From NCBI GenBank assembly GCA_016932855.1, contig JAFGCB010000014.1, positions 6,496 to 70,495 of the forward strand: a stretch of DNA of 64,000 bases, given 5' to 3'. Below the pieces are notes generated by a model that was not told the origin of the DNA, did no database searches, and was given only the letters and a program-made list of their open reading frames with translations. This DNA comes from Candidatus Omnitrophota bacterium (GTDB taxonomy: Bacteria > Omnitrophota > Gorgyraeia > Duberdicusellales > Duberdicusellaceae). A program made the position numbers and the translations under genes. Below are positions 876-17,518 of this stretch, one piece after another. Every line of letters starts with the position of its first letter. Positions within the stretch are counted from its first letter, which is position 1.

Positions 876-2024
876 CTAGGGCTTTATTGCGGTCCTAATC
901 CTTTCTGCAAGCGCTCTCCAAGAAAAATATTTCTCCACCCGCTCTTTTCCGTTTTTACCCAATCTTACGGCATGCTCTTTATTTGTAAGTAACTCGTAAA
1001 TTAAATCTGATAATTTCTTAGCATCATAAGGATCAACTAATAACCCGGTCTCTTGGTCAATAACCGCATCAACTACCCCGCCTGACAAGCCGCCGATAAC
1101 AGGCTTGGCGCAGGCGTTAGCCTCCAGGTAGGCAATGCCAAAACCCTCAAACCAATGACGCCTTCCTTGCGTCTCCCTGCTTGGCATAACAAATACATCG
1201 CAAAGCGAAAAATATGGCGGCGTATCCTCATGAGCAACGTGGCCAACAAAGATTACGTTATCTTCCAGCTTTAACCTGGAAACTAGCTCTTCCAGATTCT
1301 TTCTTTCTCTGCCGTCTCCTACGATTAAGTACTTAACATCCGCCATTTTTTTCAAAAGATAAGAAAGGGCTTTAATTACTACGTCGTGGCCTTTATGATC
1401 ATCCAGGCGGGCTACGGTCAAAATGACCTTTTTACCAGTAAGTTTATATCTATCTATAATATCTCTGCAATCGGCATTAACTCCGAATTTTTCAATATCA
1501 ACGCCGCCCGGTATAACCAATAAATGTTCGGATTTAACTTGCCGGGCTTCAAGAAATCTTTTAGTAAACTCGGATATGGGAAAACATTTTACGGCCTTAT
1601 TAAATACTAGTCTTGCCAGCCATCTTAAATGCTGCTTAATAGTTCTTTTTAAAAGGGAGGTAGCATCGAATATCTCGGCGCCAAAGGCAACCACCGAATA
1701 AGAAAAACCGAATAAAAAAGAAGTAAAATATGAAATAGCGGCGCAAGGAAACCATACTATATTAAGCACATGCTGAATTCGATGTTTTCGAACTAAATAA
1801 ATAAACTTAAAGAAAAACTGAACTTCGCGCAAAAACAATATATTCGACACCCTCACAATCTTGAATTTCTGGCGAGAATCAAACTCTAAGCTTTCTTTAT
1901 GCTTTTGAGCCAAGACTATTACCTCTTCGCCCAGTTCATTCAATTGCGCTGTAATCCCGTAGGCGTATGTCGATATACCTCCGGGGATAGGAGGAAAATC
2001 AACAGTAAATATTAATATCCGCAT
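876..2024 (-). CDS. Glycosyltransferase family 4 (GT-B)
   Basis: N-terminus MRILIFTVDFPPIPGGISTYAYG. C-terminal GT4 signature EGFGIAYLEANACAKPVIGGLSGGVVDAVIDQETGLLVDP. Confidence 0.8.
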   Translation of the reverse strand: MRILIFTVDFPPIPGGISTYAYGITAQLNELGEEVIVLAQKHKESLEFDSRQKFKIVRVSNILFLREVQFFFKFIYLVRKHRIQHVLNIVWFPCAAISYFTSFLFGFSYSVVAFGAEIFDATSLLKRTIKQHLRWLARLVFNKAVKCFPISEFTKRFLEARQVKSEHLLVIPGGVDIEKFGVNADCRDIIDRYKLTGKKVILTVARLDDHKGHDVVIKALSYLLKKMADVKYLIVGDGRERKNLEELVSRLKLEDNVIFVGHVAHEDTPPYFSLCDVFVMPSRETQGRRHWFEGFGIAYLEANACAKPVIGGLSGGVVDAVIDQETGLLVDPYDAKKLSDLIYELLTNKEHAVRLGKNGKERVEKYFSWRALAERIRTAIKP

Positions 2025-2059: not shown

Positions 2060-3205
2060 CTAAATCTCTTTTCCAGATTGAGCTACAAGCTCTTCGTATA
2101 AAAGCTGATATTGGGCCACCTTGTCTTTTATATTAAATTCAATATTTACAGCTAATTTCGCTTGCCGCGTTATTTTCTCGCTTCTTTCCCTGTTATCAAA
2201 AGTCTCTATTATTGCCCTGGCTAAAGCCATAGGGTCTTGTGCCGATACAAGGATGCCGGTCGTACCATTTTGTATTGTCTCCTTAACCCCTTCAATATCG
2301 GTAGCAATAATCAGAACCCCTTCTGCCATTGCCTCCAAAAGTACAATCGGCTGGCCTTCCCGGATTGAAGGCAAAACAAAAATATCCAAAGCCTGTAGAA
2401 TTTCTTTAATATCAGACCTAAAACCAGTAAAAATAACCCTTTCTTTTATACCTAGCCTCCCAGCCAAACTTTCTAATTTTCCTCTTAAAGGCCCTTCACC
2501 AACAATTAAATATCGGGTGTCGGGTATCGGGCATCGGGTATCGAGGATTTTTGCTGCTTCAATAAAGTATTTGAACCCCTTCTGCCAAACCAACCTTCCT
2601 ATCGTCCCCACAAGCCTTACATCCTCCGCAATTCCCAACTCCTTTCTAATCTTTATTCTGTTCTCTGTTCTCTGTTCTCTGTTCTCGGAACTAATTTCCA
2701 CTCCATTATAAATCCTGACAACCTTATCCGCAGGAACCTTATGGACCTTAATCAATCTATTCTTTAAAGCTTCGGATACCACAATAAATTTATCCACGAA
2801 TCTTTCGCTATAACGGTCTAAGCTCACATATAAAGCTTTTTGCAATAAATTTACATCATACCCTTCAGGCGGCATTACTATAGTATTAACTATAAAAACG
2901 CGCTTATCTCTTGCGGCCATTCGGGTAAAAAAGTCTGACCGCAAACCCTGGCTATGTACGATATCTATATTGCGCTGCTGGATTATCTGCGAAAGATAAC
3001 GGAAATTATTTAAATTATAAAGATTCTTAAGCGAAAGTGGTATTATTTTAGCCGAATCTTTTATCCTATCGGAAAATCCTCCCCCGGGATTACAGGCGAC
3101 AAAAATATCGTATTGGGATTTATCCAGAGAATTTATAATCTGGCTAAACGACCTTTCTCCTCCGCCGAAAAACACATTCTCGATAACAAACAATATTCTT
3201 ACCAT
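2060..3205 (-). CDS. Glycosyltransferase family 4 (GT-B); contains two heptanucleotide tandem-repeat tracts
   Basis: GT4 motif FVLPSIREGQPIVLLEAMAEGVLIIATDIEGVKETIQNGTTGILV. Internal repeats (ctgttct)x4 at about 2653-2680 and imperfect (atcgggN)x3-4 at about 2511-2545. Confidence 0.8.
   Translation of the reverse strand: MVRILFVIENVFFGGGERSFSQIINSLDKSQYDIFVACNPGGGFSDRIKDSAKIIPLSLKNLYNLNNFRYLSQIIQQRNIDIVHSQGLRSDFFTRMAARDKRVFIVNTIVMPPEGYDVNLLQKALYVSLDRYSERFVDKFIVVSEALKNRLIKVHKVPADKVVRIYNGVEISSENREQRTENRIKIRKELGIAEDVRLVGTIGRLVWQKGFKYFIEAAKILDTRCPIPDTRYLIVGEGPLRGKLESLAGRLGIKERVIFTGFRSDIKEILQALDIFVLPSIREGQPIVLLEAMAEGVLIIATDIEGVKETIQNGTTGILVSAQDPMALARAIIETFDNRERSEKITRQAKLAVNIEFNIKDKVAQYQLLYEELVAQSGKEI
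2511..2545. repeat. Imperfect heptanucleotide tandem repeat (atcgggN)x3-4 inside the GT4 gene
   Basis: gtcgggt atcgggc atcgggt atcgagg. Confidence 0.5.
2653..2680. repeat. Perfect heptanucleotide tandem repeat (ctgttct)x4 inside the GT4 gene
   Basis: ctttatt ctgttct ctgttct ctgttct ctgttct cgg. The unit length is not a multiple of 3. Confidence 0.8.
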
Positions 3206-3213: not shown

Positions 3214-3981
3214 CTAGCCTCTTCTTCCAACAAGCACCAGGGAATAGCCGAAATAATCATCAAAGATTGTCGGCACTTCAAGATACCGGGTATTTATCAT
3301 TATTCGCCATCTAAGTAAATGTAATATATAGCGCAGCAATAAAAAAAATATCGAATCTTTTATAACTGAGCTGCCTACAAGACTATATGACGAAAAACCT
3401 ATCGACTCTGCGATTTTTTTCAGCTCTTTACGGGTGAAAGGAATTTCCATAATATCGGAATATCCCAGTATATCCGATAACCACATAAAAACCCTATAGG
3501 CAAAGCAATCCTTATTAGGAACAGCCACGAAAGAAATGCCCCTTTCAGCCAGAAGGCTCTTATGTATGTCAAAAATATCAATACGTTCAGGATACGTAAA
3601 ATGCTCGGCTAATCCAAAAGACATCGATATATCGAATTTGCCGATAAGATCATCTGGGATATCAAAAATATCCGCTTTTATAAAACTGGCACTTAGGCCA
3701 AATGCTTTGAACAATTCGCCGGCCTTATCCAGGGCAACATCACTGTAATCTAAAAGACTTACCCTTGCTCCTTTTAAGGCAAATAAAAGGGCGTTTTCTC
3801 CCCGGCCTGAACCGATTTCAACAACTTTCAATCCTTCAAAGGAACCGAATCTTTCAATTACGCTCTTTTCAATCTTCCTAAAGCGCACGGAAGCCAGTTC
3901 ATTTTCGATAATCCGCTTATCAAACTTAGCGCCGGCTTTAAAATTTACCCAAAAATTATCCCAGGATTTCCGCTGATCCAT
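3214..3981 (-). CDS. Class I SAM-dependent methyltransferase
   Basis: Motif I VVEIGSGRGENALLFALKGARVSLLDYSDVALDKAGELF. Adjacent to GT genes. Confidence 0.75.
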   Translation of the reverse strand: MDQRKSWDNFWVNFKAGAKFDKRIIENELASVRFRKIEKSVIERFGSFEGLKVVEIGSGRGENALLFALKGARVSLLDYSDVALDKAGELFKAFGLSASFIKADIFDIPDDLIGKFDISMSFGLAEHFTYPERIDIFDIHKSLLAERGISFVAVPNKDCFAYRVFMWLSDILGYSDIMEIPFTRKELKKIAESIGFSSYSLVGSSVIKDSIFFLLLRYILHLLRWRIMINTRYLEVPTIFDDYFGYSLVLVGRRG

Positions 3982-4006: not shown

Positions 4007-5161
4007 TTAAATAACTTGGCGTAAACTTTCTTCAATCTGCCCTGCCCTAAGAACCCAGGTGCAATTCCTAACCACAAATTCTCTGCCTCTTCTGCCCATG
4101 TCTTTCCTCAACGTCTCGTCCCTGATTAATTTAATTATGGCCTCGGATACCTCCTTCTTATTATTGGCATCAACCGAAATCCCTGCTCCTATATCTTCCA
4201 CAAAATCACCGTAACCTTCCACATTGCTGGCTACAACCGGCTTACCGCAAGCCAGATATTCGTATAGTTTTATAGGATCGCCCGGGTCTAAACGCACTGA
4301 CTTAAAGAAAACCGCACAAACGTCAAAGGCATTAATATATAAGGCAATGTCCTTGAAAGGGACTGCTCCTGAGAAAATAAAAGCCTCATCAAGGCTCTTT
4401 GCCTTAACTTGTTGAATTAGCTTATCTTTCATTTGACCCTGGCCAACAATAACAAACTTCACATTAGGTATCTGTTCTAAGATTAAGGGCGAGCTTTCGA
4501 TTAATAAATCCAGCCCATGCCAGGGAAAAAGACCCCCTACAAAGCCGACCAAAAAATCATTCGTAGAAAAATTTAGCCTGATTTTAGCTTCTTTTACGTC
4601 GGAAGGTTTAAATAAATCTACATCAACTCCGTTTTTAACGATATCTATCTTATCGTCCTCAATCGCAAATCTTTTTACCAAATTATTTTTTAATACTTTG
4701 GTAACTACAAAAACCTTATTAGCTAACCTTAAGCACATCTTCTGAAATATACTTACCAAAAATATATAAAGTGGATTCCGGCCGGTCAAGCCTAACTCAT
4801 CTGCGGCTATGCCGTTAACATAAATAATAAGAGGTTTTTTAAATATCTTCGACAAAAACACCGGCCAGAAATCCAGATACACTTCAAAAAATAAGACTAT
4901 ATCCGGCCTAAACTTAAAGAGGTTTTTAATGAAATAAAAGGGCGAAAGAATCAAATATGAAAAATACTTAAGAACCGGCATATTTATAGTCCGTACATAC
5001 TCTGTATCAAAACCATCAAAGGATTGAAAGCTGCCCATAAAAGGTGCGCGAACCTTAATTTCATTACCGCTGCGGCTTAAAGCTTTGGCAATCTCTAAGA
5101 CCTGTCTCTTCCCCCCGCCGTATCCTGCCATGTCTTCATAACAAACAAAAAGAATCTTCAT
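4007..5161 (-). CDS. Glycosyltransferase family 4 (GT-B)
   Basis: N-terminus MKILFVCYEDMAGYGGGKRQ. C-terminus EYLACGKPVVASNVEGYGDFVEDIGAGISVD. Confidence 0.8.
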   Translation of the reverse strand: MKILFVCYEDMAGYGGGKRQVLEIAKALSRSGNEIKVRAPFMGSFQSFDGFDTEYVRTINMPVLKYFSYLILSPFYFIKNLFKFRPDIVLFFEVYLDFWPVFLSKIFKKPLIIYVNGIAADELGLTGRNPLYIFLVSIFQKMCLRLANKVFVVTKVLKNNLVKRFAIEDDKIDIVKNGVDVDLFKPSDVKEAKIRLNFSTNDFLVGFVGGLFPWHGLDLLIESSPLILEQIPNVKFVIVGQGQMKDKLIQQVKAKSLDEAFIFSGAVPFKDIALYINAFDVCAVFFKSVRLDPGDPIKLYEYLACGKPVVASNVEGYGDFVEDIGAGISVDANNKKEVSEAIIKLIRDETLRKDMGRRGREFVVRNCTWVLRAGQIEESLRQVI

Positions 5162-5168: not shown

Positions 5169-7115
5169 TCAATATATCTGCTTTAGGATAATGTTTTCTC
5201 TTTCTTTCCACCTGGGAAGCATATTGCTCTTGCCGTCAACGATTAATTTCTGACGAATCCTAATGACATTTAAAAAATTAAGTGCCGGTATTACATCGTA
5301 AGAAAAACCTACTTCCCGGCAATACTTCTTAAGTAAACTATCGGTCAATTTACTGCCTGCATAAGTAAGCTTGCATATCTTTGCCAAATCAGTCCCGGGA
5401 AGACCGTCCTCCTCCATACTCTTCCAGTCGATTATCTTAAACCTTATAGGCCAAATGCTTTGAATAACAAAATTATGCAAGTTAAGATCATTATGCGCAT
5501 ACACAAGTGGAATGCCGATCCACGTTTTCCTTAAAGTCTCTAAGTGCGTTCCTGCAGATTGACTTAAAGCATTATCGGATTTTTCTTCCAGAAAATCAGC
5601 AATGGGCTTTTCGGCATAATCAAAAAAAGAAAGATTATTATCTTTTCTGCTCTTTAAGCCCAGTTCAAGCAAGAAGTCAAATACCTCCGGTAAAAATCTT
5701 CTTCCTAAAAAAGTAAACATGATTAACTTCTGAACAAAATTTCGGTTATAAATCTTTAAGCTTTTGTAAAAAGGTAGTACTGAATAAGGAAATCCTCCAA
5801 TATTGCCATGAGCAATAATCTCAGGTAAAAGCTTAAGCCTGCTAAGCTGTAAAGATTTTAACTTTTCCAGATTCTCGACCTCTCTATTTAAAAAAGGCAG
5901 GCTTTCAAAGCGCGCGAACTTACAGATAAATTCGGAATTTTGTTTTCTTAAATTGACTGTAACCGAAGAGGTTAAGCTTGACCCTGTTCCGGCGACAAGA
6001 GAAGTAAAATATGCACCCTTTAGAAACGGTTCCCTATCGATAAGGCTCTCAACAATGCTTAGGAGCGGGGTTTGATTGAATCTTTTTTTTCTTAAAATAA
6101 ACATGTGCGAAATGCATAAATTTTTCTTAATACTGAAAGGTAAAAACGTTAGAGAGCAGCGATAAAGTCTTGACGCATGAAAAGACTGGGATCTTTTCCT
6201 GCTTTTGCAACGGCTGCGATAATAATCGAAGATTTCCTCGGGATAGCGGGAATCAGGCAAAGGAACCCGGACTTTATCTACAGAAAAATTAGCCTCTTTA
6301 AAAAAATCTATGTATTGTGAAACGCCCAGTAATCCGCTCAAATATTCCTTTCCTTTAAGTTTGGACACGCTGTTTATCAGCTTATCCGGAAATAAAAGCA
6401 GCCCCGGCATACCATTATTATGGTAGTTCTTGCTTATATTAAGCTCAAAAGAATATTTATTTCTGGTTGTAATATAGAAGACTCCTTTATCCTTTAATAC
6501 CCGGTATACTTCGTCTAAAAGCTTTCTTTGAATATTTTTTACATCTGGAAAACTTGCCTCAAATCCTAACCATTCAAAGACACCGTTTAGGATAACAATA
6601 TCAAACATATTGTCTTTATAAGGCAATAAGCAACCGCCGCCGCCTTGAGCCACTGATAGATTATCTACTCCATCCTCCTTTGCCCTAATATGCATAAATT
6701 GGCAATTTGCCGATACTTTCTCCAGGGCATATACCGACTTTACGGTCTTGGCAAGATTTAGAGAAATAAGACCGTGGCCTGCTCCGATGTCCAGAATCTG
6801 GGAATCCTTGGTAATAGGAAGTAAATATTTAAAATCCACCCGGCTTAAATCAGTAAGATAATCCAATAAGCCTAGCCTTCTTATCTGAACTTCAATCAAA
6901 GCCTGCGCATATCCTTTCTTCTTTGAAAGCTCAACTAATTCAGAAAGAACTTTATTAAAAGAAGAATCGCCGCTTAAAAAACGAGGCTTTTCTTTAAGAA
7001 AAACAGGTATTTCTTCCAAAATAGGATATTCTTCCTTACATTGAAGACAACGAAATAATTCCGGCTGTCTTTCCAAATCGCCTTTGCATTTAAGACAACA
7101 ATATACTTCAAACAT
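5169..7115 (-). CDS. Bifunctional methyltransferase/kinase-like protein: Zn-ribbon + SAM MTase + APH/eukaryotic-like kinase domain; WbdD-like candidate polysaccharide chain terminator
   Basis: N-terminal CxxC..CxxC. Motif I LDIGAGHGLISLNLAK. C-terminal Brenner kinase motif HNDLNLHNFVIQ ... IIDWKSM. Confidence 0.5.
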   Translation of the reverse strand: MFEVYCCLKCKGDLERQPELFRCLQCKEEYPILEEIPVFLKEKPRFLSGDSSFNKVLSELVELSKKKGYAQALIEVQIRRLGLLDYLTDLSRVDFKYLLPITKDSQILDIGAGHGLISLNLAKTVKSVYALEKVSANCQFMHIRAKEDGVDNLSVAQGGGGCLLPYKDNMFDIVILNGVFEWLGFEASFPDVKNIQRKLLDEVYRVLKDKGVFYITTRNKYSFELNISKNYHNNGMPGLLLFPDKLINSVSKLKGKEYLSGLLGVSQYIDFFKEANFSVDKVRVPLPDSRYPEEIFDYYRSRCKSRKRSQSFHASRLYRCSLTFLPFSIKKNLCISHMFILRKKRFNQTPLLSIVESLIDREPFLKGAYFTSLVAGTGSSLTSSVTVNLRKQNSEFICKFARFESLPFLNREVENLEKLKSLQLSRLKLLPEIIAHGNIGGFPYSVLPFYKSLKIYNRNFVQKLIMFTFLGRRFLPEVFDFLLELGLKSRKDNNLSFFDYAEKPIADFLEEKSDNALSQSAGTHLETLRKTWIGIPLVYAHNDLNLHNFVIQSIWPIRFKIIDWKSMEEDGLPGTDLAKICKLTYAGSKLTDSLLKKYCREVGFSYDVIPALNFLNVIRIRQKLIVDGKSNMLPRWKERENIILKQIY

Positions 7116-7127: not shown

Positions 7128-8693
7128 TTAAAGCAGAAGCCTTCCGATAATCGGCACTCTCTGTTTAATAAACAGCTTATCCCGGCTGTCAAAAATCCTA
7201 AAAACAAAAATAAAAACTATATAAATAATTGAAAAAACAGCGGCTTTTAGCAAAATGATGACTAGCCCTTCAAGCCGTCCGATACCACCTGAGAAAAAAT
7301 TAGAAAACAGCTTACTTAAATATAGGATGAATATATTAGCCCCCATGCTTGCCATTAGCGGCTTGCAGATAAGGATAAAAAAAGCTCCCAAGGGCTTGTT
7401 TAAATAATTATGGAATATCTTAATAAGAAATAATGCCCCGACAAAAAGAGACGCAGCCGTGCCTATGCAGGCTCCTATAATCCCCATCTTTATGATTAAG
7501 GCGATGCTTAAAATAATATTTAAGGGCGCAACCAGAATACTGTATTTCATCTCAAAATCAGGCCTGCCCAATCCTAAAGCGGTAGTAGTGGCCGTTCCGG
7601 TAAGGACATTCAGAAAATAGCCCACACAAAGAACCTGAAGAACTAAAACCGATGCGCTAAACCCCTGACCCAGCCAAGTCCTAAGTATCAATGAAGCATT
7701 AAATATCGCAAAAGAAAACAAAGGCATGCTTAAAAGAATTAAATATTTAGAACTTCTTAAATAAAACTCATATATTTCATCTCTGCTTTTTGTTGCGCCT
7801 ATTTCGGAAACAGCCGGTATAATCGCCGAAACCAATAAAAAGGCTAGTCTTCTTAAGGTAAAGGTAATCTTAAACCCTAATTCATAAAAGCTAACCGCAT
7901 TTATATTGATAAGCCGGCCAAGAAGGACTTTATCGGCATGGAAATTGACTAAAAAAGCAATCCGGGCGACATTAACCTTTAAGCTAAAGCCGAACAGCAT
8001 CTTAAAAATAGCTTTGTCGAATTTAAGAGGGCTAAAGCTTATCTGGGGCAAATTCCTTAAAGCAAATAATGCCGTAAGTATTCCTTTAATAAAGATAAGG
8101 ATTAGATTATTTATAACCAAACCTACAAGGCCGTATCCTTTTTTTAAGACAAAAACCGTTCCCGCCGCGGTTAAAAAGCTAATTACAATCAATATCTTGT
8201 TGGTAATATCCATACGCTGCAGACCGGAAAGAATAGAAGTAAAAATATCGAAAGCAACTATCAAAATAAATGAAGCTATGCCCAGACGGATAACCAGTAA
8301 GGCCTGTCTTTGTAAGCTTGGGGGTAAATCAAAAAAGCTTACGATTAATTCTGAAAAGATAAAAGCCAAAGCCCCTATTACCAAAGCAAGCAAAGCATAA
8401 AAAACAAAGCTTGTATTAATCAATTGGCTAAGCTTAAGGAAGTCTTCTTTAGCATGAAACTCCGATACATACTTGATTACCGGGGCTCTTATGCTGATAT
8501 CAAAAAAACCGAGATAAGAAATAAAAATATTAACAATTATCCATATTCCGAATCTTTCAAGACCCAAGTAATTAAGGATGTAAGGAGTAAGAACCAAGCT
8601 TAAAATTACCGAAAAAAATGCACCCATGGCGTTATAAAAAGTGTTCTTTACTACCTTCTGCGATATAGTAATATTGGCATTACCTGTATTCAT
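7128..8693 (-). CDS. wzx: Polysaccharide biosynthesis protein, MOP-superfamily oligosaccharide flippase (Wzx-like)
   Basis: 521 aa, about 12-14 predicted TM helices. Polysacc_synt-like N-terminus. Located in a GT-rich locus. Confidence 0.65.
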   Translation of the reverse strand: MNTGNANITISQKVVKNTFYNAMGAFFSVILSLVLTPYILNYLGLERFGIWIIVNIFISYLGFFDISIRAPVIKYVSEFHAKEDFLKLSQLINTSFVFYALLALVIGALAFIFSELIVSFFDLPPSLQRQALLVIRLGIASFILIVAFDIFTSILSGLQRMDITNKILIVISFLTAAGTVFVLKKGYGLVGLVINNLILIFIKGILTALFALRNLPQISFSPLKFDKAIFKMLFGFSLKVNVARIAFLVNFHADKVLLGRLININAVSFYELGFKITFTLRRLAFLLVSAIIPAVSEIGATKSRDEIYEFYLRSSKYLILLSMPLFSFAIFNASLILRTWLGQGFSASVLVLQVLCVGYFLNVLTGTATTTALGLGRPDFEMKYSILVAPLNIILSIALIIKMGIIGACIGTAASLFVGALFLIKIFHNYLNKPLGAFFILICKPLMASMGANIFILYLSKLFSNFFSGGIGRLEGLVIILLKAAVFSIIYIVFIFVFRIFDSRDKLFIKQRVPIIGRLLL

Positions 8694-8708: not shown

Positions 8709-9875
8709 TCACACTGGACTTTTATTGTTTAGAACCTCCTTACATACCCGGACTGTCATTTTTGCCAATATATCCCAGCTGTAATTATTAACAACAAATT
8801 CCCGGCCGTTCTTTCCCAATGTATCTCTTTTTTCTTTATCCGGCAAAAGATCTATTATGGCCTGCGAAAGAGCTTGGGGATTCTCGGGAGGGACTAAAAT
8901 CCCGCCTTTACTATTTGCAATCAATGAGTGGCTGCATTCAACATCGCTTGCCACTACAGGACGGCCGCTTGCAAAATAATCAAATATCTTAACCGGAGAG
9001 GCAGAGCCTCTTGATTTCAAAAAAGGCGCAACGCAGACATCCATGGCACTTATAAACGAAGGCATTTCATAGTAGGAAATATGCCCGGTAAAGATAAAGC
9101 TCTCCGATAAGCCTAAGTAGCGTACTTCTTTATCCAAATAACCGCGGACAGGCCCGTCGCCGACAATCAAAAATATTGCCTTACTAAATTTACCTAATAT
9201 AGCCGGCGCTGCCCGGACTAAAACTTCTATTCCCTGATGCTCGTAAAGAGTCCCTATAAAACCGACATAATATATATCCGGCTTTAGACCTAATTTATTA
9301 CGGGCCTCTTCGGCCTCAATCGGCCGGAATAAAGAAATATTAGATCCGCTGGTAATAACCGCGATCTTTGACGTGGGGACTTTTTGAAGTAGCTTAAGTG
9401 TCTCTTTTAATTCATAGGTAAGAGATACTATCTTGTCACAAAGAGCAAGATTAAATCTCTCCTTTGTCTTACTTATAAAATCTTTTATCCTGTTTGTGGT
9501 CTTATAAACGCAAGAAGCATGATGCACCTCTAAAACCAAAGCCGCGCCGAAGCACTTGGCTAAAACCTTCGATAGAAAGGTATCCATTTGCCGCAAGTAT
9601 ACTATGTCGGGCCTAAGTCTTAAAGCGTAAAAAACCGACATAAAAAATGATATTAAATAAAAAGACATGTAGTGGCAGAATTTAATTCTCAAAAAAGGCA
9701 CCTCTACTATCTTAAAACTTACTTTTGCATAAGAATTGCGATATTTGGGAACGAATACAACGACTTTGTTGCCGAGACTACAAAGGCCTTCTGATATCTC
9801 CCAGACTCTTACCAGGCCTATCTCTTTTACATCAATATAATTCTGAGGCCAATAAGCAAAAACAAAAATATTCAT
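8709..9875 (-). CDS. Glycosyltransferase family 4 (GT-B)
   Basis: FASGRPVVASDVECSHSLIANSKGGILVPPENPQALSQAI. GT4 C-terminal domain. Confidence 0.8.
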   Translation of the reverse strand: MNIFVFAYWPQNYIDVKEIGLVRVWEISEGLCSLGNKVVVFVPKYRNSYAKVSFKIVEVPFLRIKFCHYMSFYLISFFMSVFYALRLRPDIVYLRQMDTFLSKVLAKCFGAALVLEVHHASCVYKTTNRIKDFISKTKERFNLALCDKIVSLTYELKETLKLLQKVPTSKIAVITSGSNISLFRPIEAEEARNKLGLKPDIYYVGFIGTLYEHQGIEVLVRAAPAILGKFSKAIFLIVGDGPVRGYLDKEVRYLGLSESFIFTGHISYYEMPSFISAMDVCVAPFLKSRGSASPVKIFDYFASGRPVVASDVECSHSLIANSKGGILVPPENPQALSQAIIDLLPDKEKRDTLGKNGREFVVNNYSWDILAKMTVRVCKEVLNNKSPV

Positions 9876-9901: not shown

Positions 9902-10792
9902 TTAATCTTTCCTGCAATTTACGACCACGTAAAGATCTTGACCCTCTTTTATAAAAATCCTGCCAATAGCTGCCAGCAACTTGTAAAAAGCAACCCTAAG
10001 CTTGCATAAACTATAATAAATAAGAGGAAAAAAAATGTTCTTGGACCCCGCCCTAATCTTTCTTTCTAAAGTCCTGGTGCCGAAACCGAAATTAAACAGA
10101 TAATATACATCATCGCAAAGTAAAGGGGCGGTTATAATCTTATCTACTCTGTAACTATGGGTCTCAAAGAACATCCTGATACTCTTCTTATCCCAGCGGG
10201 TTAAATGATGCGGCGGATAATCCCAGACCGATTTTTGAGGATAAATCCTGTCGCGATTGGGTATAGATAAAAACAGCTTAGCGTCATAAGCTAAAAAACC
10301 TTTAAGGAGCCTAAAAACCTCACCGGGAGCCTCCAAGTGCTCGAGAACCTGAAAAATAATTATAATATCGAACTTGGATTTTTCTTCATTTATACCTAAC
10401 TTATAAACATCCGATACGAAAGACTTATCTATGCCTAGGACGTTCTTGGTGAACTTAACTATATCCTTATTAATATCAACGGCTGTAACATCGCATCCTT
10501 TATCTTTAAGTTCTTTCAGAAAAATATTCCTCGAACACCCGATATTTAGAACCTTTTTTAAGTCCCATTCAATATCCTCTTTTAAAAAAGTCTTTTCATA
10601 CCAGCGAAGATAATCTAGCGACGCTCCTGATAAATCATACCACCACAGCTTCTCATACCAGGAGGCTGTGCCTGACTTCATGGGATTAGCAAAGATAACT
10701 TCGCAATCCCGGCATTTACGAAACCTATAACCCTGTGAAGTATATGTATTAATTTCATTATTATTATTAGAGAAGCATCCCGGACATTGCAT
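9902..10792 (-). CDS. Class I SAM-dependent methyltransferase with N-terminal Zn-ribbon
   Basis: MQCPGC...CRDC zinc ribbon. Motif I VLNIGCSRNIFLKELKDKGCDVTAVD. FDIIIIFQVLEHL. Confidence 0.75.
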   Translation of the reverse strand: MQCPGCFSNNNNEINTYTSQGYRFRKCRDCEVIFANPMKSGTASWYEKLWWYDLSGASLDYLRWYEKTFLKEDIEWDLKKVLNIGCSRNIFLKELKDKGCDVTAVDINKDIVKFTKNVLGIDKSFVSDVYKLGINEEKSKFDIIIIFQVLEHLEAPGEVFRLLKGFLAYDAKLFLSIPNRDRIYPQKSVWDYPPHHLTRWDKKSIRMFFETHSYRVDKIITAPLLCDDVYYLFNFGFGTRTLERKIRAGSKNIFFPLIYYSLCKLRVAFYKLLAAIGRIFIKEGQDLYVVVNCRKD

Positions 10793-10824: not shown

Positions 10825-12387
10825 CTAAAACAACACTCTATAGAGACGCACTTTGCCAAACGTATACAATAGCTCCCATTTTCCGGGGGGACGCTTAATA
10901 AATTCGGGAATCTCTTTAAATCTGGAAACCTTGCTGCCCTGGGGGCCTAGGAAAAATAAATCCGACTCATCTATTATTACATAAGTATCATCTAGCTCCC
11001 GATATTCTTTAACCCTAAAAATATTCTTAAATAGCGACTTTCTATTCTCTTCTTGCGAAAACAGCAAAAACCCCGAAAGAGGGTTCTGATAACTAGGCCC
11101 GGTTTTATATTTGGAATAATAATTGAGTCTCAAAGGCCAATTAACGCCCGTGCAATACACCGGCTTCAAAGGAAGACCTTTGATATAGTCGTAGACAAGT
11201 TGATATTTAACTTCTTCATCCTGATTATAAAGGCGCATCCGGTAAGAACCATATATTGAAGTAGCCAGAAGAAAAACCACTATTAGCGTCCTAAGGAACG
11301 AAAAAGAAATATTCCTACCTCTAAAATTCGCCTTGCTATTTGCCAAGCAATTATTTAAGAAAAAAGACAATATTAAGACTGCCGGGGCAGTTAAGACTGT
11401 CAAATACCTAAAACACTTGGGAATAAAATGCTGGGTCAAACTCCAGGCCCCAAATTCCAAGTATAAAAAAACTGTAAAAAACCAAAAAAGCAAAACATAA
11501 GCTTTTCTTAGCTTCTTAATAATAATCATAAGGGCCGAAAACAAAACAAAATAATAGAAAAATCCAAAACTTGAAAGCCCGTAGAGATTAAATCCGAACA
11601 TACCCTTAGGATATACTAATAAATTATGTTTTTGAATAACGAATTCGGGGGTTACCGCCATATACTCTCTAGCGAAGTGAGCATGAATCCGTAGTTGGAA
11701 GAGAAAATCTCCTGTTGAAAAGTATAAAAAAATCCAAAAGCATAATCCGAATAGAGCTGCCGCCACAAAGGGCAGGAAAAATGCTTTTTCATATTTACGC
11801 TTATAAGTAACATAAACGGCGAAAAACAATAATAATACCGCTGATACCTCTTTAACAAGAAAGCCTGCCCCAACAGCCAATCCGGAAGCGAACAGAGCCA
11901 AGATTCTTAAGAAATTGTTTTTTATTTGTTCAGCCTTAAGAAAAATAAATACCGATAAAATCATGAAAAATGCTGATACTACATCAGGAAACAACCGGGT
12001 GGCATAATTGATTTCCAAAGGAAAAAAAGAAAATAAAAAGGCTGCCAAGAGGGCGGTCTTATCGTCAAGGATAAGCTTTCCTAAATAAAAAACAAGGACA
12101 ATGCTTGCCAAAGAACAAACAAGAGGCCAAAGAACAGCCGCTATATCATTTACGCCTAAAATCAAAAACGATAAAGCAGTAGGCAAAGTTATTAAAAATC
12201 TGAACTCATAAGGGTTAGAAATATTCGCAACCTCAAAATTACCGCCTACTATAACCCTTGAACTGTGCGCATAAAGAAAAGAATCAAAACCTCCCATTCC
12301 TCCAAAAAGAAATAATCGTACGCCTAAGCCAAAAAGCAATATCAATGCCAATATATATCTGGGCTTAAGCCCTACGGAGCTAAACAT
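10825..12387 (-). CDS. Polytopic membrane glycosyltransferase, GT-C fold (PMT/ArnT, GT39/GT83-like)
   Basis: 520 aa, more than 10 TM helices. N-terminal LFLFGGMGGFDSFLYAH resembles the first-loop acidic motif of ArnT/PMT-type transferases. Confidence 0.45.
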   Translation of the reverse strand: MFSSVGLKPRYILALILLFGLGVRLFLFGGMGGFDSFLYAHSSRVIVGGNFEVANISNPYEFRFLITLPTALSFLILGVNDIAAVLWPLVCSLASIVLVFYLGKLILDDKTALLAAFLFSFFPLEINYATRLFPDVVSAFFMILSVFIFLKAEQIKNNFLRILALFASGLAVGAGFLVKEVSAVLLLFFAVYVTYKRKYEKAFFLPFVAAALFGLCFWIFLYFSTGDFLFQLRIHAHFAREYMAVTPEFVIQKHNLLVYPKGMFGFNLYGLSSFGFFYYFVLFSALMIIIKKLRKAYVLLFWFFTVFLYLEFGAWSLTQHFIPKCFRYLTVLTAPAVLILSFFLNNCLANSKANFRGRNISFSFLRTLIVVFLLATSIYGSYRMRLYNQDEEVKYQLVYDYIKGLPLKPVYCTGVNWPLRLNYYSKYKTGPSYQNPLSGFLLFSQEENRKSLFKNIFRVKEYRELDDTYVIIDESDLFFLGPQGSKVSRFKEIPEFIKRPPGKWELLYTFGKVRLYRVLF

Positions 12388-13786
12388 CGACCACCTCGAA
12401 TTCTTCCAAATAAGGAAGCATCATTACTATTGCCGCTAAAAACCAAAACGGCTCCATAATACGCACGATAATAAAAGTGTTAGCGCCAAAACCTTGAACA
12501 AGCAATCCTGTAAATCCGGCTAAAAAACCTAAAGACAAACCCTTGGCCCAGCTATTCTTTACGCCCTTAAAAATGGCTAAGGAATTTCGAAAAATCAATA
12601 TCAATAACCAGATAAATATCACAAAGCCTATAATCCCCGTTTCTCCCAAGACTCTGGGGTATTGAATATCAACAAGGCCAACCCCGGTAACTCCATAGCC
12701 TAATATTGGACTCTTAAGCCAATACCTGAACACTGTCCTCCAGCCCTCCACCCGGGCAACTGCTGATTGCTCCAAAGGAAGATTTTTTCCGAAGGCGTGA
12801 TAAGTCTTGTAGGGAGTAAAAGTTGATGCGATACGGCCGGTTATTGTATCCACTACCTGGGGAAGAAATACAAACACAATACAAACCACCAAAAGGGCCC
12901 CGGCGATAAGAAATAACCTTTTACTTCTGGATACCAAAATTATAACTGAGTACATTACAATAAAAGCAAGATAGCTGCTTCGGGAAAGAGTAAATATAAA
13001 AGAAGGAATTATGAAAAAACAAACTATGCCTGTAAATATTTTCCATGTTCTTGAACGACTGTATAAAAAGATGCCTATAGATACCGCGAACAATAAAACA
13101 AGATACCCTGCCAGGGTATTAGCCTCTCCGGCTTTTCCCTCAAAGGGAGCAGTTGTCCGGGATAAAACTCCGATTTGTGGCAAGGTGTAAATACAAACTA
13201 TAACACAGGTAAGTAGCAAGGCTATAATAAAGGTCTTAACTTGCTTTTGGTCGCGTATATTATTTGTGACCAAAAAATATAACATAAAATATTGAATGTA
13301 TTTTAGGACATAAAAAAAACTCGTAAGTGGGATGATATAAGCGTTTACTATTCCGACAATAGTCGAAATGATGCATACTGCAATATAACCTAATATAAGC
13401 GAAGTAAGAGAAGTCCGCCGTAAAAGCCCTAAGTCCTTATTCAAGGCCATCTTTGCAAGCCAGCCGAAAAAAACAACTCCTAAAAGGATATCATCCATCC
13501 TGACCACCACTTCTCTAGCTGGGACTTCGGCAAGTTTGAATTCAGGAGAAAGAAGCATGGAGAAAATCAATATAATTAAAGCCATATCAGTGTTTACAAA
13601 AGTGATTATCAAGACAACGAGTGAAAAAATAAGGGAAAAAACAAACAAAGGCAATTTTCCGGAAGCAAGATTAAGTTCGGGCTCAGAGGTTGGTGAATAA
13701 AAAATAAAGAAGATTATGATTATAAAGGCAATTAATAATAAGGCAGCTGAAATTTGCGATATGGCCTGGCCTTTTTTTCTACACAT
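12380..13786 (-). CDS. O-antigen ligase / Wzy_C-domain membrane protein (putative polymerase or O-glycosylation ligase)
   Basis: 468 aa polytopic protein. FTLSRSSYLAFIVMYSVIIL and a large periplasmic loop with GEANTLAGYL are typical of the Wzy_C/O-antigen-ligase family. Overlaps the upstream gene by 8 nt. Confidence 0.6.
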   Translation of the reverse strand: MCRKKGQAISQISAALLLIAFIIIIFFIFYSPTSEPELNLASGKLPLFVFSLIFSLVVLIITFVNTDMALIILIFSMLLSPEFKLAEVPAREVVVRMDDILLGVVFFGWLAKMALNKDLGLLRRTSLTSLILGYIAVCIISTIVGIVNAYIIPLTSFFYVLKYIQYFMLYFLVTNNIRDQKQVKTFIIALLLTCVIVCIYTLPQIGVLSRTTAPFEGKAGEANTLAGYLVLLFAVSIGIFLYSRSRTWKIFTGIVCFFIIPSFIFTLSRSSYLAFIVMYSVIILVSRSKRLFLIAGALLVVCIVFVFLPQVVDTITGRIASTFTPYKTYHAFGKNLPLEQSAVARVEGWRTVFRYWLKSPILGYGVTGVGLVDIQYPRVLGETGIIGFVIFIWLLILIFRNSLAIFKGVKNSWAKGLSLGFLAGFTGLLVQGFGANTFIIVRIMEPFWFLAAIVMMLPYLEEFEVVDV

Positions 13787-13903: not shown

Positions 13904-15814
13904 TTACTTCTCAGACCTGCTCTCGTCATCTCTGGTATAGTAGCCGTATTTTTTATAACGGTAGTAGTAAGGATAGGGCTCTATGGGCTCGGTCTGAGGC
14001 CGAGTATGATTAAGAACTATTCCGGAAATATTGGTATTTACTGAATCTAACTGTGCTTTGCAGCGCAGAAGAGCTTCCCGGGAAACTCTGCCAGTTTCAT
14101 AGCAGACAACGATAGAATCTACTAAATTAGCGATAAGAGAAGCGTCGGTTACCGGAAGGACCGGGGGCGAATCAAAAAATACCACATCAAATTCACTACG
14201 CAGCTGTTCAAGCAAGGAAGAAAACCTGCTCGAGGCTAAAAGTTCCGCCGGATTATGAGGTATAGTCCCGCAAGGAAGAACCCAGATATTCCTAAGCCCC
14301 GAGGGCTTTACCGCCTCATCGAATTCCATATCCCCCAATATAATGTCGGTAATGTTTCTTAAGGCGTCTTTTAAATTATCCAGACCCGACAGAACTTCAC
14401 TTAAGCCCGGCCGAGGCTCTATGCCGAAAGTCTTAGCCAAAGCAGGCCGGCGCATATCCGAAGAAACTAATAAGGTGCGCAGGCCCTCTTGTGCGGTAGC
14501 CAATCCTAAATTTGTCAAAATAGTAGTCTTTCCTTCCTGGGGAGAAGAGCTTGTAATAAGAATTACTTTTTTTGAAGGGCTTATCTTAAGATTAGTCCTT
14601 ATATTTCTGAAAGATTCCGATATAGGCGCAGTAGGCTTGTAATGAACTGCCAGACGGATATATTTCTCCTCCTCTTCGCTTTTGGGAGGAATAAAAAATC
14701 TTCTTTTTATCCTGTCTAAAATATTTCCTTTCGCCCTGGCTCCGGCCTCAATAGAAGGGACAACTCCCAATACCGACAATTTTGTGATATTTTCAACGTC
14801 TTCTATTGTACCTATAGAAGTATCAAGGGTCTCGGTAACAAAAGCTAAGACACTTCCCAAAATCAGGCCCATTATTCCGCCCAAAACCAAAGACAGCTTC
14901 CCCTGAGAGCCTATTGCAACCGGGGGCATGACCGCCGGATTGACCACTGAAACATCGGAAACTTCCTCAGCCTCGGTAATACGGGCCTGCTCCAGCTTTT
15001 CTTTAAGCATGGAATAAAGCTTTCTATTATCTTCCGTTTCCCTTTTTAGGCGGGCGTATTCCAGGGCCTCTTCAGAAAATCCTTTTATCTGATTCTTTAA
15101 ATCTACGACCTGCTCCTTAAGTTGTATCACTGTAGGGTGTTTTTCGGTATATTTCTGCAATAAGGCCGCGAGCTGAAATTCCAAATCTACAATCTTTTCT
15201 TGAATAGGTTCGGCAATGCTTATATTATCTATTTTATCATCGTATTCCTTAAGCCTGTTCTCGGTATCACTTAGTCGCACTTTAAGGGAATTGAGCTGCT
15301 CTTCGACAAATTCACGCACGCTGCGGGCCTGCTTATTCTTGCTAAGAAGGTTCTCCTCAACATATACCCGGGCGACAGCATTTGCTAAATCAACTGCTTC
15401 CTGAGGCTTTTTGGATGTAGCCATAATCTTTATTATATTTGTCCTTCCGATGAGCTCGGTTTCAACCTGCGAGCTTATTCTTGTTACCGCTTCATTAACC
15501 GCATCCAAAGGAGAGTTTTCTTCAATAAAACCAAGATGCAAGGCTACTTTCTTGATAACCGGATAGCCTTTAATGATCTTGGCCTGAGACTCCATAATAT
15601 CGCCGGGATTATAGGAAATCCATTCGGTAAGCAGCCCGGCGATTGTCTTTCTTTCTTCATATTTTACGGTAGTTGTAGACTGATAAAGGGTTATTTGACG
15701 GGAGGAATGAAAGCCGAAGAGTAGGACCGATAAGATAAAAGTAACAATAACGATAAACTTGCGTTTCCGGAAAATCCTTATATAATCGCGCAAATTTAGC
15801 TCGTATTGTACCAT
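13904..15814 (-). CDS. wzc: Polysaccharide co-polymerase / BY-kinase (Wzc-like tyrosine autokinase)
   Basis: N-terminal Wzz domain with TM helix. Walker A SSSPQEGKTT, Walker B VVFFDSPPV. C-terminal tyrosine cluster PYPYYYRYKKYGYYT. Confidence 0.8.
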   Translation of the reverse strand: MVQYELNLRDYIRIFRKRKFIVIVTFILSVLLFGFHSSRQITLYQSTTTVKYEERKTIAGLLTEWISYNPGDIMESQAKIIKGYPVIKKVALHLGFIEENSPLDAVNEAVTRISSQVETELIGRTNIIKIMATSKKPQEAVDLANAVARVYVEENLLSKNKQARSVREFVEEQLNSLKVRLSDTENRLKEYDDKIDNISIAEPIQEKIVDLEFQLAALLQKYTEKHPTVIQLKEQVVDLKNQIKGFSEEALEYARLKRETEDNRKLYSMLKEKLEQARITEAEEVSDVSVVNPAVMPPVAIGSQGKLSLVLGGIMGLILGSVLAFVTETLDTSIGTIEDVENITKLSVLGVVPSIEAGARAKGNILDRIKRRFFIPPKSEEEEKYIRLAVHYKPTAPISESFRNIRTNLKISPSKKVILITSSSPQEGKTTILTNLGLATAQEGLRTLLVSSDMRRPALAKTFGIEPRPGLSEVLSGLDNLKDALRNITDIILGDMEFDEAVKPSGLRNIWVLPCGTIPHNPAELLASSRFSSLLEQLRSEFDVVFFDSPPVLPVTDASLIANLVDSIVVCYETGRVSREALLRCKAQLDSVNTNISGIVLNHTRPQTEPIEPYPYYYRYKKYGYYTRDDESRSEK

Positions 15815-15933: not shown

Positions 15934-16722
15934 ATGAATACAACAATAATAGAAACAAAAGAGATAACTAAACTCTTTTGGTCTCCTCTTTCTCTATCGA
16001 AAATATCAAGGTTAGATCTTAAAAGAACAAAGCCGGTCAAAGCCCTAGATCAAATATCTTTTAAATGCGACAAAGGCTCAACCTTAGTTGTTTTAGGGCC
16101 GAACGGTGCAGGAAAAACCACGCTACTTAAGATAATCTCTACTCTTGTGCTTGCCGACAAAGGCGAGGTTAAGATAGCCGGGTATAAGGTTGGTAAGGAT
16201 GATGAGAAAATAAAGTCGAAAATAGGCTTAGCTAGCGGGGAAGAGCGAAGTTTCTATTGGCGCCTTACCGGAAGACAGAATTTAGAGTTTTTTGCAAGCC
16301 TCTACGGCATGGATAAAAACGAAATTAAATCCCGGCTTGAGATATTATTTAAATTATTTAAGATTGACTACCAGGAAAAACGCTTTGATACCTACTCCAC
16401 TGGTATGAAAAGGCGATTTTCCCTTATAAGGGCCCTTATTCATGATCCGGAAATCTTACTTTTGGACGAACCCACAAAAAGCCTGGATTATAACTGCCGG
16501 CAGGAACTAACCAAGCTTATAAAAGAACTGACAATGAAGGGCAAAACCGTAATCTTGGCCACACATGATATACAAGAAGCCGAGAATTTATCTAGTTTAT
16601 TTATGATTCTTAACAAAGGAAGGCTCTGCGGATTCGGCTCTAAAGAAGAATTAAGTAAAAAGATAGGATTAGGCGCAACGAATCTGGCTAAAGTCTATTT
16701 AACCCTTACCGAGAATGTCTAA
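15934..16722 (+). CDS. ABC transporter ATP-binding protein (ABC-2 type; Wzt/TagH-like, no C-terminal CBM)
   Basis: Walker A LGPNGAGKTT, signature YSTGMKRR, Walker B LLLDEPT. Confidence 0.85.
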   Translation: MNTTIIETKEITKLFWSPLSLSKISRLDLKRTKPVKALDQISFKCDKGSTLVVLGPNGAGKTTLLKIISTLVLADKGEVKIAGYKVGKDDEKIKSKIGLASGEERSFYWRLTGRQNLEFFASLYGMDKNEIKSRLEILFKLFKIDYQEKRFDTYSTGMKRRFSLIRALIHDPEILLLDEPTKSLDYNCRQELTKLIKELTMKGKTVILATHDIQEAENLSSLFMILNKGRLCGFGSKEELSKKIGLGATNLAKVYLTLTENV

Positions 16723-17518
16723 AATAATTTCTCTACTAAAGAAAGATTTTTTAATTGAAACAAGTTACAAATTAGCCTTTTTATTCAATATCTTCGGCGT
16801 CATTAGCAGCCTGCTTATTTATTTCTTTATTGACAAACTTTTCGGCCAAAGAATAAGCCCGCACTTGGAAGAATTCGGAATAAATTATTTTTCTTATGTG
16901 CTTTTAAGCATGGCTTTCTTCAGTTATATCGGCGTAGGCATCGGCTCTTTTTCCTCCCGGATTAGAGCCGAACAAATACAGGGGACGCTGGAATCACTTC
17001 TGGTCACTCCCACCAAAATATCAATAATCCTCTTAAGTATGGGTCTCTGGAACCTCATCTTCGCCACAATCGACGTTTTTATATATATTTCTTTAGGGGT
17101 AATATTATTTAACATAAACTTTACTAATGTAAACCTTATTTCAACGCTCGCAGTATTAATCTTGACTATTATATCCTTTAGCAGCCTAGGCATACTTTCC
17201 GCCAGTTTTATAATGATTTTTAAACGGGGAAATCCTGTAGCCTGGATTATAAATACCCTAGAGGGCCTTTTAGGCGGTGTATATTTTCCGGTTAAGGTTA
17301 TGCCGGCTTTCCTGCAGTTTCTGGCTAGATTCCTACCGATTACCTATGCCATACGGGCAATGCAACTGGCTGTATACAAAGGACATACTGTCTTTGAGCT
17401 TAAAAATGAACTTCTTTTTCTTTTCTTGTTCTCCTGCCTGCTTCTACCTCTAAGCTTTACCTCTTTTAGCTACGCTCTTAAGAAAGCTCGCCTCCAAGGA
17501 AGCCTCCTGCAATACTAG
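16715..17518 (+). CDS. ABC-2 type transporter permease (Wzm-like)
   Basis: 267 aa, 6 TM. Overlaps the ATPase gene by 8 nt. ABC-2 permease topology. Confidence 0.7.
   Translation: MSKIISLLKKDFLIETSYKLAFLFNIFGVISSLLIYFFIDKLFGQRISPHLEEFGINYFSYVLLSMAFFSYIGVGIGSFSSRIRAEQIQGTLESLLVTPTKISIILLSMGLWNLIFATIDVFIYISLGVILFNINFTNVNLISTLAVLILTIISFSSLGILSASFIMIFKRGNPVAWIINTLEGLLGGVYFPVKVMPAFLQFLARFLPITYAIRAMQLAVYKGHTVFELKNELLFLFLFSCLLLPLSFTSFSYALKKARLQGSLLQY

Follow-up and report, generated by a model that had tools for sequence, protein, structure and literature searches.

To our knowledge, methyl-phosphate caps are known so far only as chain-terminating, export-licensing signals in O-antigen synthesis dependent on ATP-binding cassette (ABC) transporters, as in Escherichia coli O9a/Klebsiella pneumoniae O3 and in K. 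pneumoniae O7. WbdD, the O9a/O3 enzyme, features a membrane-anchoring C-terminal coiled coil (aa 460–708, about 250 aa), and has been described in terms of a coiled-coil ruler, trimerisation and recruitment of WbdA (PMC3482155). The N-terminal part of K. pneumoniae O7 ORF6 (ORF6-N) phosphorylates and then methylates in vitro the O3 of the terminal rhamnose, as followed by mass spectrometry and 31P-1H heteronuclear multiple bond correlation; its kinase is AmiN/APH-like, measures about 223 aa, and has D441 as catalytic residue, while methyl-only caps mark E. coli O8/K. pneumoniae O5 (PMC11231755). Here we describe a gene for a methyltransferase-kinase fusion found on the minus strand of a 64,000-nt stretch from a Candidatus Omnitrophota bacterium (contig JAFGCB010000014.1). 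The whole stretch is called the window, and all positions are window coordinates. The protein encoded at 5169–7115 is most likely a soluble, cytoplasmic, bifunctional glycan-modifying enzyme of a large uncharacterised family. The explanation which best accounts for the data as a whole is that the enzyme decorates the lipid-linked repeat units of a Wzx/Wzy pathway with a methyl-phosphate-type group, to which we assign a probability of roughly 0.5. It is favoured by intact catalytic residues, a two-domain model, homology of the methyltransferase to the O7 type, pairing of the two modules, and a Wzx/GT4 context.

The open reading frame (ORF) is unbroken in ORF listing and translation. Domains and motifs, located by Pfam, by conservation in a family alignment (A2) and by an AlphaFold2 (AF2) model, are the following:

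5169–7115, minus strand: zinc-ribbon/methyltransferase/APH-type kinase fusion, 648 aa (ORF listing, translation, Pfam, AF2 model)
6996–7115, minus strand: N-terminal zinc ribbon, Trm112-like, aa 1–40, CxxC-x12-CxxC (A2 conservation, model strands)
6081–6968, minus strand: helical subdomain, class I S-adenosylmethionine (SAM) methyltransferase core and lid, aa ~50–345 (Pfam Methyltransf_31/11/25; hhalign/hmmsearch to the O7 type)
6570–6587, minus strand: NGVFEW motif, aa 177–182, after strand beta-4, family signature (A2)
5172–6068, minus strand: APH-family kinase domain, aa 350–648, up to the protein end (Pfam APH, PDB profile matches, model)
5472–5495, minus strand: catalytic loop HNDLNLHN, aa 541–548, of the form HxDxxxxN (A2)
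5421–5435, minus strand: IIDWK, aa 561–565, metal-binding Asp motif equivalent to DFG (A2)

Residue counts refer to A2, which holds 72 full-length family members from an exhaustive profile search. Cysteines C7, C10, C23 and C26 of the zinc ribbon are kept in 66–68 of the 72 members; the ribbon is modelled as four short strands (13–16, 20–23, 29–33, 36–38), and Pfam Trm112p matches the family member of locus L016. Class I methyltransferase families match at aa ~100–222 (best E 4e-14), and in the model the lid, about 115 aa long, reaches aa ~345. The SAM site reads LDIGAGHG in the window protein, and the motif LDxGxGxG is conserved in about 70 of 72 members. Conservation is as high in the NGV(L/F)EW signature (N177 66/72, G178 72/72, E181 70/72, W182 70/72). 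The APH family (PF01636) matches the kinase at aa 386–607 with 21.7 bits when the whole protein is scanned, just under the cut-off of 23.2, and with 24.8 bits, above the cut-off, when aa 350–648 are scanned alone. The motifs YAHNDLNLHNFV and FKIIDWK are present in the translation. Catalytic-loop residues H541 (70/72), D543 (72/72) and N548 (71/72), and D563 (72/72) and W564 (62/72) in the IIDWK motif, are conserved; at K399, the beta-3 Lys, 62 of 72 members have K or R.

The AF2 model was built on A2; an earlier model based on 5 sequences (pLDDT 54.7) was discarded. The model is confident throughout (pLDDT 92.8, pTM 0.93), and shows, in order, the zinc ribbon, the helical subdomain, the methyltransferase with its lid, and the kinase, which extends to the final residue. 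A previous reading of this DNA, made from the letters and the translated ORFs and called here the sequence-only reading, had recognised a zinc ribbon, a class I SAM methyltransferase and a kinase in the 648 aa, and all three are borne out by Pfam, A2 and the model. It had also proposed looking for a C-terminal coiled coil; none is found in the model, where the end helices (606–628 and 636–647) are short and packed into the kinase C-lobe. Given the conserved catalytic residues and the confident model, both predicted enzyme domains look active, the model implying that they pack in a fixed arrangement.

References for WbdD, Wzt and Wzm were taken from the O9 strain E. coli HS, in which the locus order is wzm-wzt(Wzt_C)-wbdD-wbdA. 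Like WbdD, the window protein carries a class I methyltransferase followed by a kinase in one chain (Pfam, AF2 model, Foldseek). In Foldseek searches of the PDB, WbdD (4AZS; further entries are 4AZT, 4AZW and 4UW0) ranks third (E 1.7e-10, 650 aligned columns), and is the sole match spanning both domains, the others being mostly single-domain methyltransferases. Identity is 11–12%, and TM-scores of 0.21–0.30 with a root-mean-square deviation of about 20 A indicate that the domain arrangement differs, one domain superposing at a time. Sequence likeness is low. The window protein does not match WbdD in phmmer searches of the PDB at E<=10. The BLASTP alignment is confined to 108 aa in the SAM-binding core (E 0.024, 22% identity), and hhalign, run from family profile to sequence, aligns 82 columns with 82% probability. 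On the PDB-search scale the family methyltransferase profile scores 21 bits (E 1.3e-3) against WbdD, the family kinase profile 6.8 bits (E 27). By hhalign, H132/H133 of WbdD correspond to E181/W182; these phosphate-binding residues of the WbdD methyltransferase, as R203, are not matched in the window protein.

The two proteins differ in other respects. The WbdD kinase resembles eukaryotic protein kinases (Src/ROCK) and has a DFG motif, the window kinase is of the APH type. A zinc ribbon and a lid of about 115 aa are found in the window protein, unlike WbdD, and the C-terminal coiled coil of WbdD has no counterpart in a chain which ends at aa 648 inside the kinase C-lobe. WbdD adjoins wzm-wzt, the latter with a carbohydrate-binding module (CBM), and a WbdA-type polymerase, the window gene adjoins Wzx and GT4 genes. 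The sequence-only reading had seen in the fusion the architecture of E. coli O9a WbdD. The domain order holds, as 4AZS is found by Foldseek; family membership does not, because sequence likeness is limited to the SAM motif, the kinase comparison gives E 27 and a coiled coil is missing. The window protein thus resembles WbdD in architecture and is no member of the WbdD family. The same reading held that a kinase-like domain matching aminoglycoside or choline kinases, next to a generic methyltransferase, would speak against kinship with WbdD. At sequence level this is largely what is seen, and it does not discriminate, since WbdD also scores on Pfam APH, as the window kinase does.

A closer relative is found in the O7 system. 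Leads to orthologs of the O7 type came from the supplementary alignment of PMC11231755, and were then replaced by clean plasmid-borne sequences, C. braakii pF217-3 (L128:8980–10929) and P. asturiensis pCC1524 (L127:8977–13350). In both, the gene comes directly after wzm and a wzt with a Wzt_C domain. In hhalign, A2 aligns with the C. braakii ORF6-type protein over 226 columns (99.1% probability, E 1e-18), a stretch which takes in helical subdomain, methyltransferase core and lid. In hmmsearch the O7 type is matched with 78–88 bits (78–81 bits over profile positions 53–343), the match covering profile positions 53–343 in the C. braakii ortholog and 55–344 in the E. coli AHM9C61I ortholog. The motifs GVLE[WY], IEN..G.KYF.G..EDH and P.PDY(K/R) are common to the family and the O7 type, and missing from generic methyltransferases; in the alignments, NGVFEW falls on GVLEY of the O7-type enzymes and on FHH (H132/H133) of WbdD. 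By profile and motif comparison, the window methyltransferase module is a homologue of an enzyme for which methylation of a sugar phosphate has been proven, and the O7 ORF6 N-terminal methyltransferase-kinase is its closest characterised relative. The WbdD analogy is useful, but is superseded by this homology. Glu181, at the position of WbdD H132, had been considered as an argument against phosphate methylation; the argument was dropped because the proven O7 phosphate methyltransferase has the same Glu (E-Y there).

O7-type proteins differ from the window protein by the absence of the zinc ribbon, and by a 223-aa kinase which is unrecognised by Pfam, whereas the window kinase, at the same position, is more clearly of the APH type. 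Beyond the kinase they carry a CBM-like domain, a coiled-coil ruler and in many cases GT2 polymerase modules, whereas the window protein ends with the kinase. They are encoded right after wzm-wzt(Wzt_C), the window protein between Wzx and GT4.

The window kinase scores as APH on PF01636 and carries the catalytic residues of that family. Features shared with APH/choline-kinase enzymes are HxDxxxxN, DW(E) and the beta-3 Lys. These enzymes stand alone or have other fusion partners, and act on antibiotics, choline or hydroxy-acids; the kinases of the window family differ from them in having an obligate glycan-methyltransferase partner and in residing in Wzx/GT4 operons. Pfam APH matches all 24 sequences of a second alignment (A3), made of the window kinase domain and 23 standalone kinase genes from related loci, and Pfam Choline_kinase 5 of the 24. 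In the PDB the kinase module is closest in sequence to APH(2'')-Id (2.6e-14) and the choline kinase LicA (7e-11); macrolide 2'-phosphotransferase and the ACAD11 kinase domain are further relatives (the matches span 2.6e-14 to 1e-10). In the same profile searches the methyltransferase also matches plant phosphoethanolamine N-methyltransferases (1e-13).

Such matches to small-molecule kinases, as the Choline_kinase hits and the plant methyltransferases, would suit a precursor pathway, in which the kinase acts on a small molecule (an amino-alcohol, e.g. ethanolamine/choline, or C1 of a free sugar, in the manner of NahK/AmgK), and the methyltransferase on the phospho-product, later activated and moved onto the glycan. 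This is improbable: no LicC/LicD-type or other nucleotidyltransferase/phosphotransferase is found among the 25 commonest families of 130 immediate neighbours, the genes are tightly coupled to Wzx and GT4 genes, and the methyltransferase is homologous to an enzyme working on an oligosaccharide terminus. The more specific idea of phosphocholine or phospho-N-methylethanolamine, made by a LicA-like kinase and a methyltransferase resembling the plant enzymes, was rejected for the lack of LicC/LicD-type neighbours. A further system, Legionella Lcin_0519, is a predicted kinase-methyltransferase encoded beside O-antigen genes, and only remotely related to WbdD according to its authors (PMC9758233). 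It represents a different, bioinformatically defined family located beside Wzm/Wzt, and is set apart by its description.

The window family, as obtained by exhaustive profile search, comprises 453 representatives (50%-identity clusters) at E<1e-30; two additional word-index homology searches contributed almost nothing. Members are either fusions of ~650–730 aa or methyltransferase-only proteins of ~350 aa. Genomic context was analyzed in 83 loci, corresponding to the window, two metagenome contigs and 80 genome loci. The latter were fetched via a peptide pattern in the methyltransferase motif, and are unbiased for kinase and context and biased for the motif; they are at most 36% identical to the window protein. 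The loci belong to more than 15 phyla, including Verrucomicrobiota, Omnitrophota, Planctomycetota, Acidobacteriota, Desulfobacterota, Chloroflexota and Gemmatimonadota. Candidate Phyla Radiation (CPR) groups, a Firmicute, a Bathyarchaeia metagenome-assembled genome (MAG) and others are additional hosts. The lineages come from soil, sediment and groundwater. At present the annotation of family genes does not go beyond 'class I SAM-dependent methyltransferase' or 'UbiE', and recognising the kinase partner improves it. Literature searches returned nothing on methyl phosphate with Wzx, APH with Wzx, or WbdD-like enzymes.

The methyltransferase and kinase modules are a conserved, obligate pair. They are fused in 49 of the 83 loci and encoded by adjacent same-strand genes in 26 (75/83 together); 7 loci have the methyltransferase only, and one is cut by the contig end. 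The pairing bears on the possibility that the two domains make separate decorations, a phospho-sugar and an O-methyl-sugar, rather than a methyl-phosphate diester. The O-methyl would be set on a different hydroxyl, or on the same sugar before phosphorylation, and the modules would share a glycan-binding surface. Consistent with this are the methyltransferase-only members, one of which is directly downstream of a Wzt with Wzt_C, as in the O8/O5 methyl-only caps (PMC11231755), and the abundance of methyltransferases, which number 4 in the window and make up 14 of the 130 immediate neighbours elsewhere. The replacement of WbdD H132/H133 by E181/W182 would fit as well, but the O7-type methyltransferase has Glu-Tyr there, yet methylates phosphate. 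Fused-or-adjacent pairing in 90% of the loci across phyla, and a packed interface (pTM 0.93), are more typical of sequential chemistry. Separate decorations are possible, if on the unlikely side.

The genes surrounding the fusion form a locus for exopolysaccharide (EPS) synthesis:

876–2024, minus strand: GT4 glycosyltransferase, same operon (Pfam)
2060–3205, minus strand: GT4 glycosyltransferase, same operon (Pfam)
3214–3981, minus strand: stand-alone class I methyltransferase, same operon (Pfam)
4007–5161, minus strand: GT4 glycosyltransferase, downstream neighbour (Pfam Glycos_transf_1/Glyco_transf_4)
7128–8693, minus strand: Wzx-type (MOP) flippase, upstream neighbour, same operon (Pfam Polysacc_synt)
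8709–9875, minus strand: GT4 glycosyltransferase (Pfam)
9902–10792, minus strand: methyltransferase (Pfam)
10825–12387, minus strand: PMT_2/GT-C-like membrane protein (Pfam)
12380–13786, minus strand: Wzy_C polymerase/ligase-like protein (Pfam; weak match to NCBIfam PEP_O_lig_1)
13904–15814, minus strand: Wzc-like polysaccharide co-polymerase/tyrosine autokinase (Pfam GNVR and AAA_31; NCBIfam Wzc 176 bits, eps_fam 161 bits)
22078–22950, minus strand: Wza-type outer-membrane polysaccharide export protein (Pfam Poly_export and SLBB)

The methyltransferase-kinase gene is packed within a long minus-strand operon, separated by 13 bp from Wzx and by 8 bp from the downstream GT4. The same association recurs elsewhere. 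By clustering of neighbouring ORFs, one Wzx cluster is found in 32 loci (the window and 31 others), at a median distance of 61 bp, mostly abutting and on the same strand, and GT4 enzymes reside within 7 kb of the methyltransferase-kinase in 59 loci. Extra methyltransferases, DegT aminotransferases, B12-radical-SAM proteins, pyruvyl transferases, deacetylases, Wzy_C, Wzc and Wza are recurring neighbours, and the census is all glycan biosynthesis. True Wzm/Wzt are found in only 2 loci (L065 and L015). The window protein is in all likelihood a glycan-decorating methyltransferase and kinase of a Wzx-dependent pathway, unconnected to the ABC exporter of the window. That it specifically makes methyl-phosphate has even or slightly better odds.

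We infer the acceptor, the order of the reactions and the placement of the methyl group on the phosphate. The neighbouring GT4 enzymes would build a repeat unit linked to undecaprenyl diphosphate, and the kinase (K399, D543, N548, D563) would use ATP to phosphorylate a hydroxyl on its non-reducing sugar. The methyltransferase (LDIGAGHG, NGVFEW) would then esterify the phosphate with SAM, to give methyl-phosphate, as O7 ORF6-N and O9a WbdD do. For the decorated unit, passage across the membrane would fall to the adjacent Wzx, polymerisation to Wzy_C/PMT_2 and export to Wzc/Wza. In Wzy-dependent synthesis chains grow at the reducing end, so the group would not stop the chain. The methyl-phosphate would be a decoration of each exopolysaccharide repeat, and no chain-terminating cap read by an ABC transporter.

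Several points weigh against a methyl-phosphate decoration in a Wzx/Wzy pathway. The function proposed for the family draws on sequence, model, context and analogy. The two methyl-phosphate enzymes characterised so far terminate chains, carry coiled-coil rulers and operate in ABC pathways; the window protein has neither the ruler nor the context. O7-type and family kinases give no HMMER match, and homology between them is not demonstrable by sequence; in the best hhalign segment, D543/N548/D563-W564 fall in register on D/N/E-W of the O7 type, at values which are not significant (E 0.079, 0.7% probability). In 7 loci, including L065 beside a Wzt with CBM, the methyltransferase module occurs without the kinase, and presumably can methylate something besides a kinase-made phosphate. 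Nowhere in the window was a priming phosphoglycosyl transferase seen that could serve EPS synthesis.

A bolder version of the proposal is that a ruler-less, terminator-type methyl-phosphate module has been recruited into Wzx/Wzy pathways across many bacterial phyla, CPR and at least one archaeal MAG, where it would cap each lipid-linked repeat unit at the non-reducing end, the co-inherited, adjacent Wzx reading the cap as 'unit complete'. We regard this as speculative and unlikely as it stands; if true, Wzx would play in its pathway the part which the carbohydrate-binding module of Wzt plays in ABC pathways, where it reads the WbdD/ORF6 cap. The data point to a family much larger than the methyl-phosphate enzymes described, in which the methyltransferase is homologous to the O7 terminator and members without ruler reside beside Wzx. 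Should the family share their chemistry, EPS repeat units decorated with methyl-phosphate (or phospho/methyl) would be common in uncultured bacteria, and the tight linkage to Wzx would give practical access to a long-standing question, what Wzx flippases recognise.

The sequence-only reading had coupled the fusion to an ABC-2 exporter located 9 kb away, between the Wzc and Wza genes, in a region which also encodes a peptide cassette:

15934–17518, divergent from the EPS genes, ATPase first: ABC ATPase (262 aa) and ABC-2 permease (Pfam, NCBIfam)
17552–18694, minus strand: NTP_transf_5 protein
18700–19590, minus strand: S24-peptidase/GNAT fusion
19581–20432, minus strand: HprK-related P-loop protein
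20489–20653, minus strand: Cys-rich ORF, 54 aa
20698–21777, minus strand: radical-SAM/SPASM enzyme
21780–22124, minus strand: PqqD

The closest NCBIfam matches are DrrA for the ATPase (218 bits, E 1.8e-64) and DrrB for the permease. In phmmer the ATPase matches E. coli O9 Wzt at 2e-17, within the range of most other ABC ATPases (8e-08 to 8e-19), and the permease gives no match to Wzm at E<1e-4. For scale, true Wzt/Wzm score 2e-84/1e-38 in L065 and 3e-66/5e-27 in L015. The ABC pair reported earlier is thus present, but its Wzm/Wzt label does not stand; the remark that the ATPase is without the C-terminal carbohydrate-binding module was correct, the 262-aa protein having no Wzt_C domain.

The surroundings of the exporter were analyzed in 42 metagenome loci carrying relatives of the permease (24–77% identical, most 63–77%). 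The peptide cassette lies on the far side of the ABC pair, inside the EPS locus. In at least 12 of the 42 loci the pair adjoins a radical-SAM/PqqD/HprK-like/NTP_transf_5 cassette, typically between Wzc and Wza. A kinase-module match was found in none of the 42, and methyltransferase matches were weak and generic. Because adjacency to the cassette recurs and 0/42 loci carry the kinase module, the exporter is assigned to the peptide cassette, itself a conserved core in loci of this type. The methyltransferase-kinase is encoded in their variable region, among the glycosyltransferase genes.

The chain terminator of the WbdD type, with the ABC pair serving as a CBM-less Wzm/Wzt, has on its side the domain order of WbdD and the Foldseek match, the ABC-2 exporter at 9 kb, and the few family members residing in Wzm/Wzt loci (L065, L015). 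The window protein, however, is not specifically similar to WbdD and has no coiled-coil ruler. The ABC pair, for its part, is divergent, DrrAB-like and devoid of Wzm signal, and sits beside the cassette in loci which are free of the kinase module, while the gene's own neighbour is Wzx, in the window as in 31 other loci. A terminator coupled to this exporter is largely refuted, and we consider it very improbable. Wzx, Wzy_C and Wzc are all present, as the sequence-only reading had stated (Pfam/NCBIfam). It had also seen elements of both assembly pathways, but only Wzx/Wzy/Wzc/Wza are evident, the ABC pair being DrrAB-like. The locus is a Wzx/Wzy/Wzc/Wza system and no hybrid of two pathways, which removes a false lead.

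In L089, L096, L097, L102, L103 and L120 the exporter is flanked by Wzy-Wzc on its upstream side and by the cassette on its downstream side. The position of Wza varies: it comes after the cassette in L089 and L096 and ahead of the ABC pair in L102, and no Wza was detected in L097, L103 and L120. The Cys-rich ORF between the radical-SAM and HprK-like genes is a candidate precursor peptide of 54 aa (MMTKKTYQKPALSQVDLVPQEALLTGCKRSDGSNGKSESCPPVNPGKCSKDSGS). A leader-like part, KKxYxKPxhxxVxLxPEEAVLxxCK, is kept at the same position in L089, L085 and L096, with 41–55% identity over 33–40 residues. The tail is Cys-rich, ends in Ser, and would suit a radical-SAM thioether maturase and a Ser kinase. 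The 15934–22124 region looks like a peptide maturation cassette akin to those for ribosomally synthesised and post-translationally modified peptides, with a DrrAB-like exporter. Literature searches found nothing on such a peptide cassette in EPS loci, or on the HprK-related kinase.

Some members of the methyltransferase-kinase family deviate from the common layout. In Thermotalea metallivorans (L065:5513–11047) a kinase-less member of 360 aa, with zinc ribbon and NGVLEW, is encoded by a gene overlapping the end of a Wzt with Wzt_C, Wzm being upstream. By analogy, the family methyltransferase would seem to serve here, in a Firmicute, as an O8-type methyl-cap terminator. Long members (880–1000 aa) are found in L016:9866–12871, L021:9905–12856 and L048:9464–12112. 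The first (1001 aa) features two methyltransferase stretches and a kinase, the second measures 983 aa, and in the third (882 aa) an N-terminal extension is implied, since the methyltransferase domain begins only near aa 270. The kinase gene is often followed by a second, small methyltransferase gene (e.g. L024, L027, L030, L033, L036, L078). Long members and second methyltransferase genes point to multiply methylated glycans. In 8 loci (L020, L038, L041, L047, L051, L052, L060, L072) an ABC half-transporter of ~590–620 aa is encoded within ~7 kb. Those of L020 and L038, the two scanned, fuse transmembrane and ATPase regions and are MsbA/PglK-like; the half-transporter may be an alternative flippase to Wzx.

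The EPS genes are followed, on the same strand, by a block (25469–35836) featuring two secretins (27992–29779 and 31023–32828), each with a tetratricopeptide-repeat/coiled-coil protein (27041–27985 and 29889–31019). AAA_22 ATPases (25469–26209 and 34979–35836) and a protein resembling type II secretion component C (32825–33511) accompany the secretin sets, and the block may make up a dedicated export system based on secretins, or a pilus-like apparatus. Outside the EPS region, trehalose/GH65 and signalling genes occupy the 36–64 kb part of the window. The compatible-solute/trehalose block (36518–48395) includes GH65 phosphorylases (40577–43012 and 46068–48395), a TreT-like glycosyltransferase (38687–39907), a DUF5752 protein, a HAD/trehalose-phosphatase fusion (43138–44754) and a GT4 enzyme (44884–46065).

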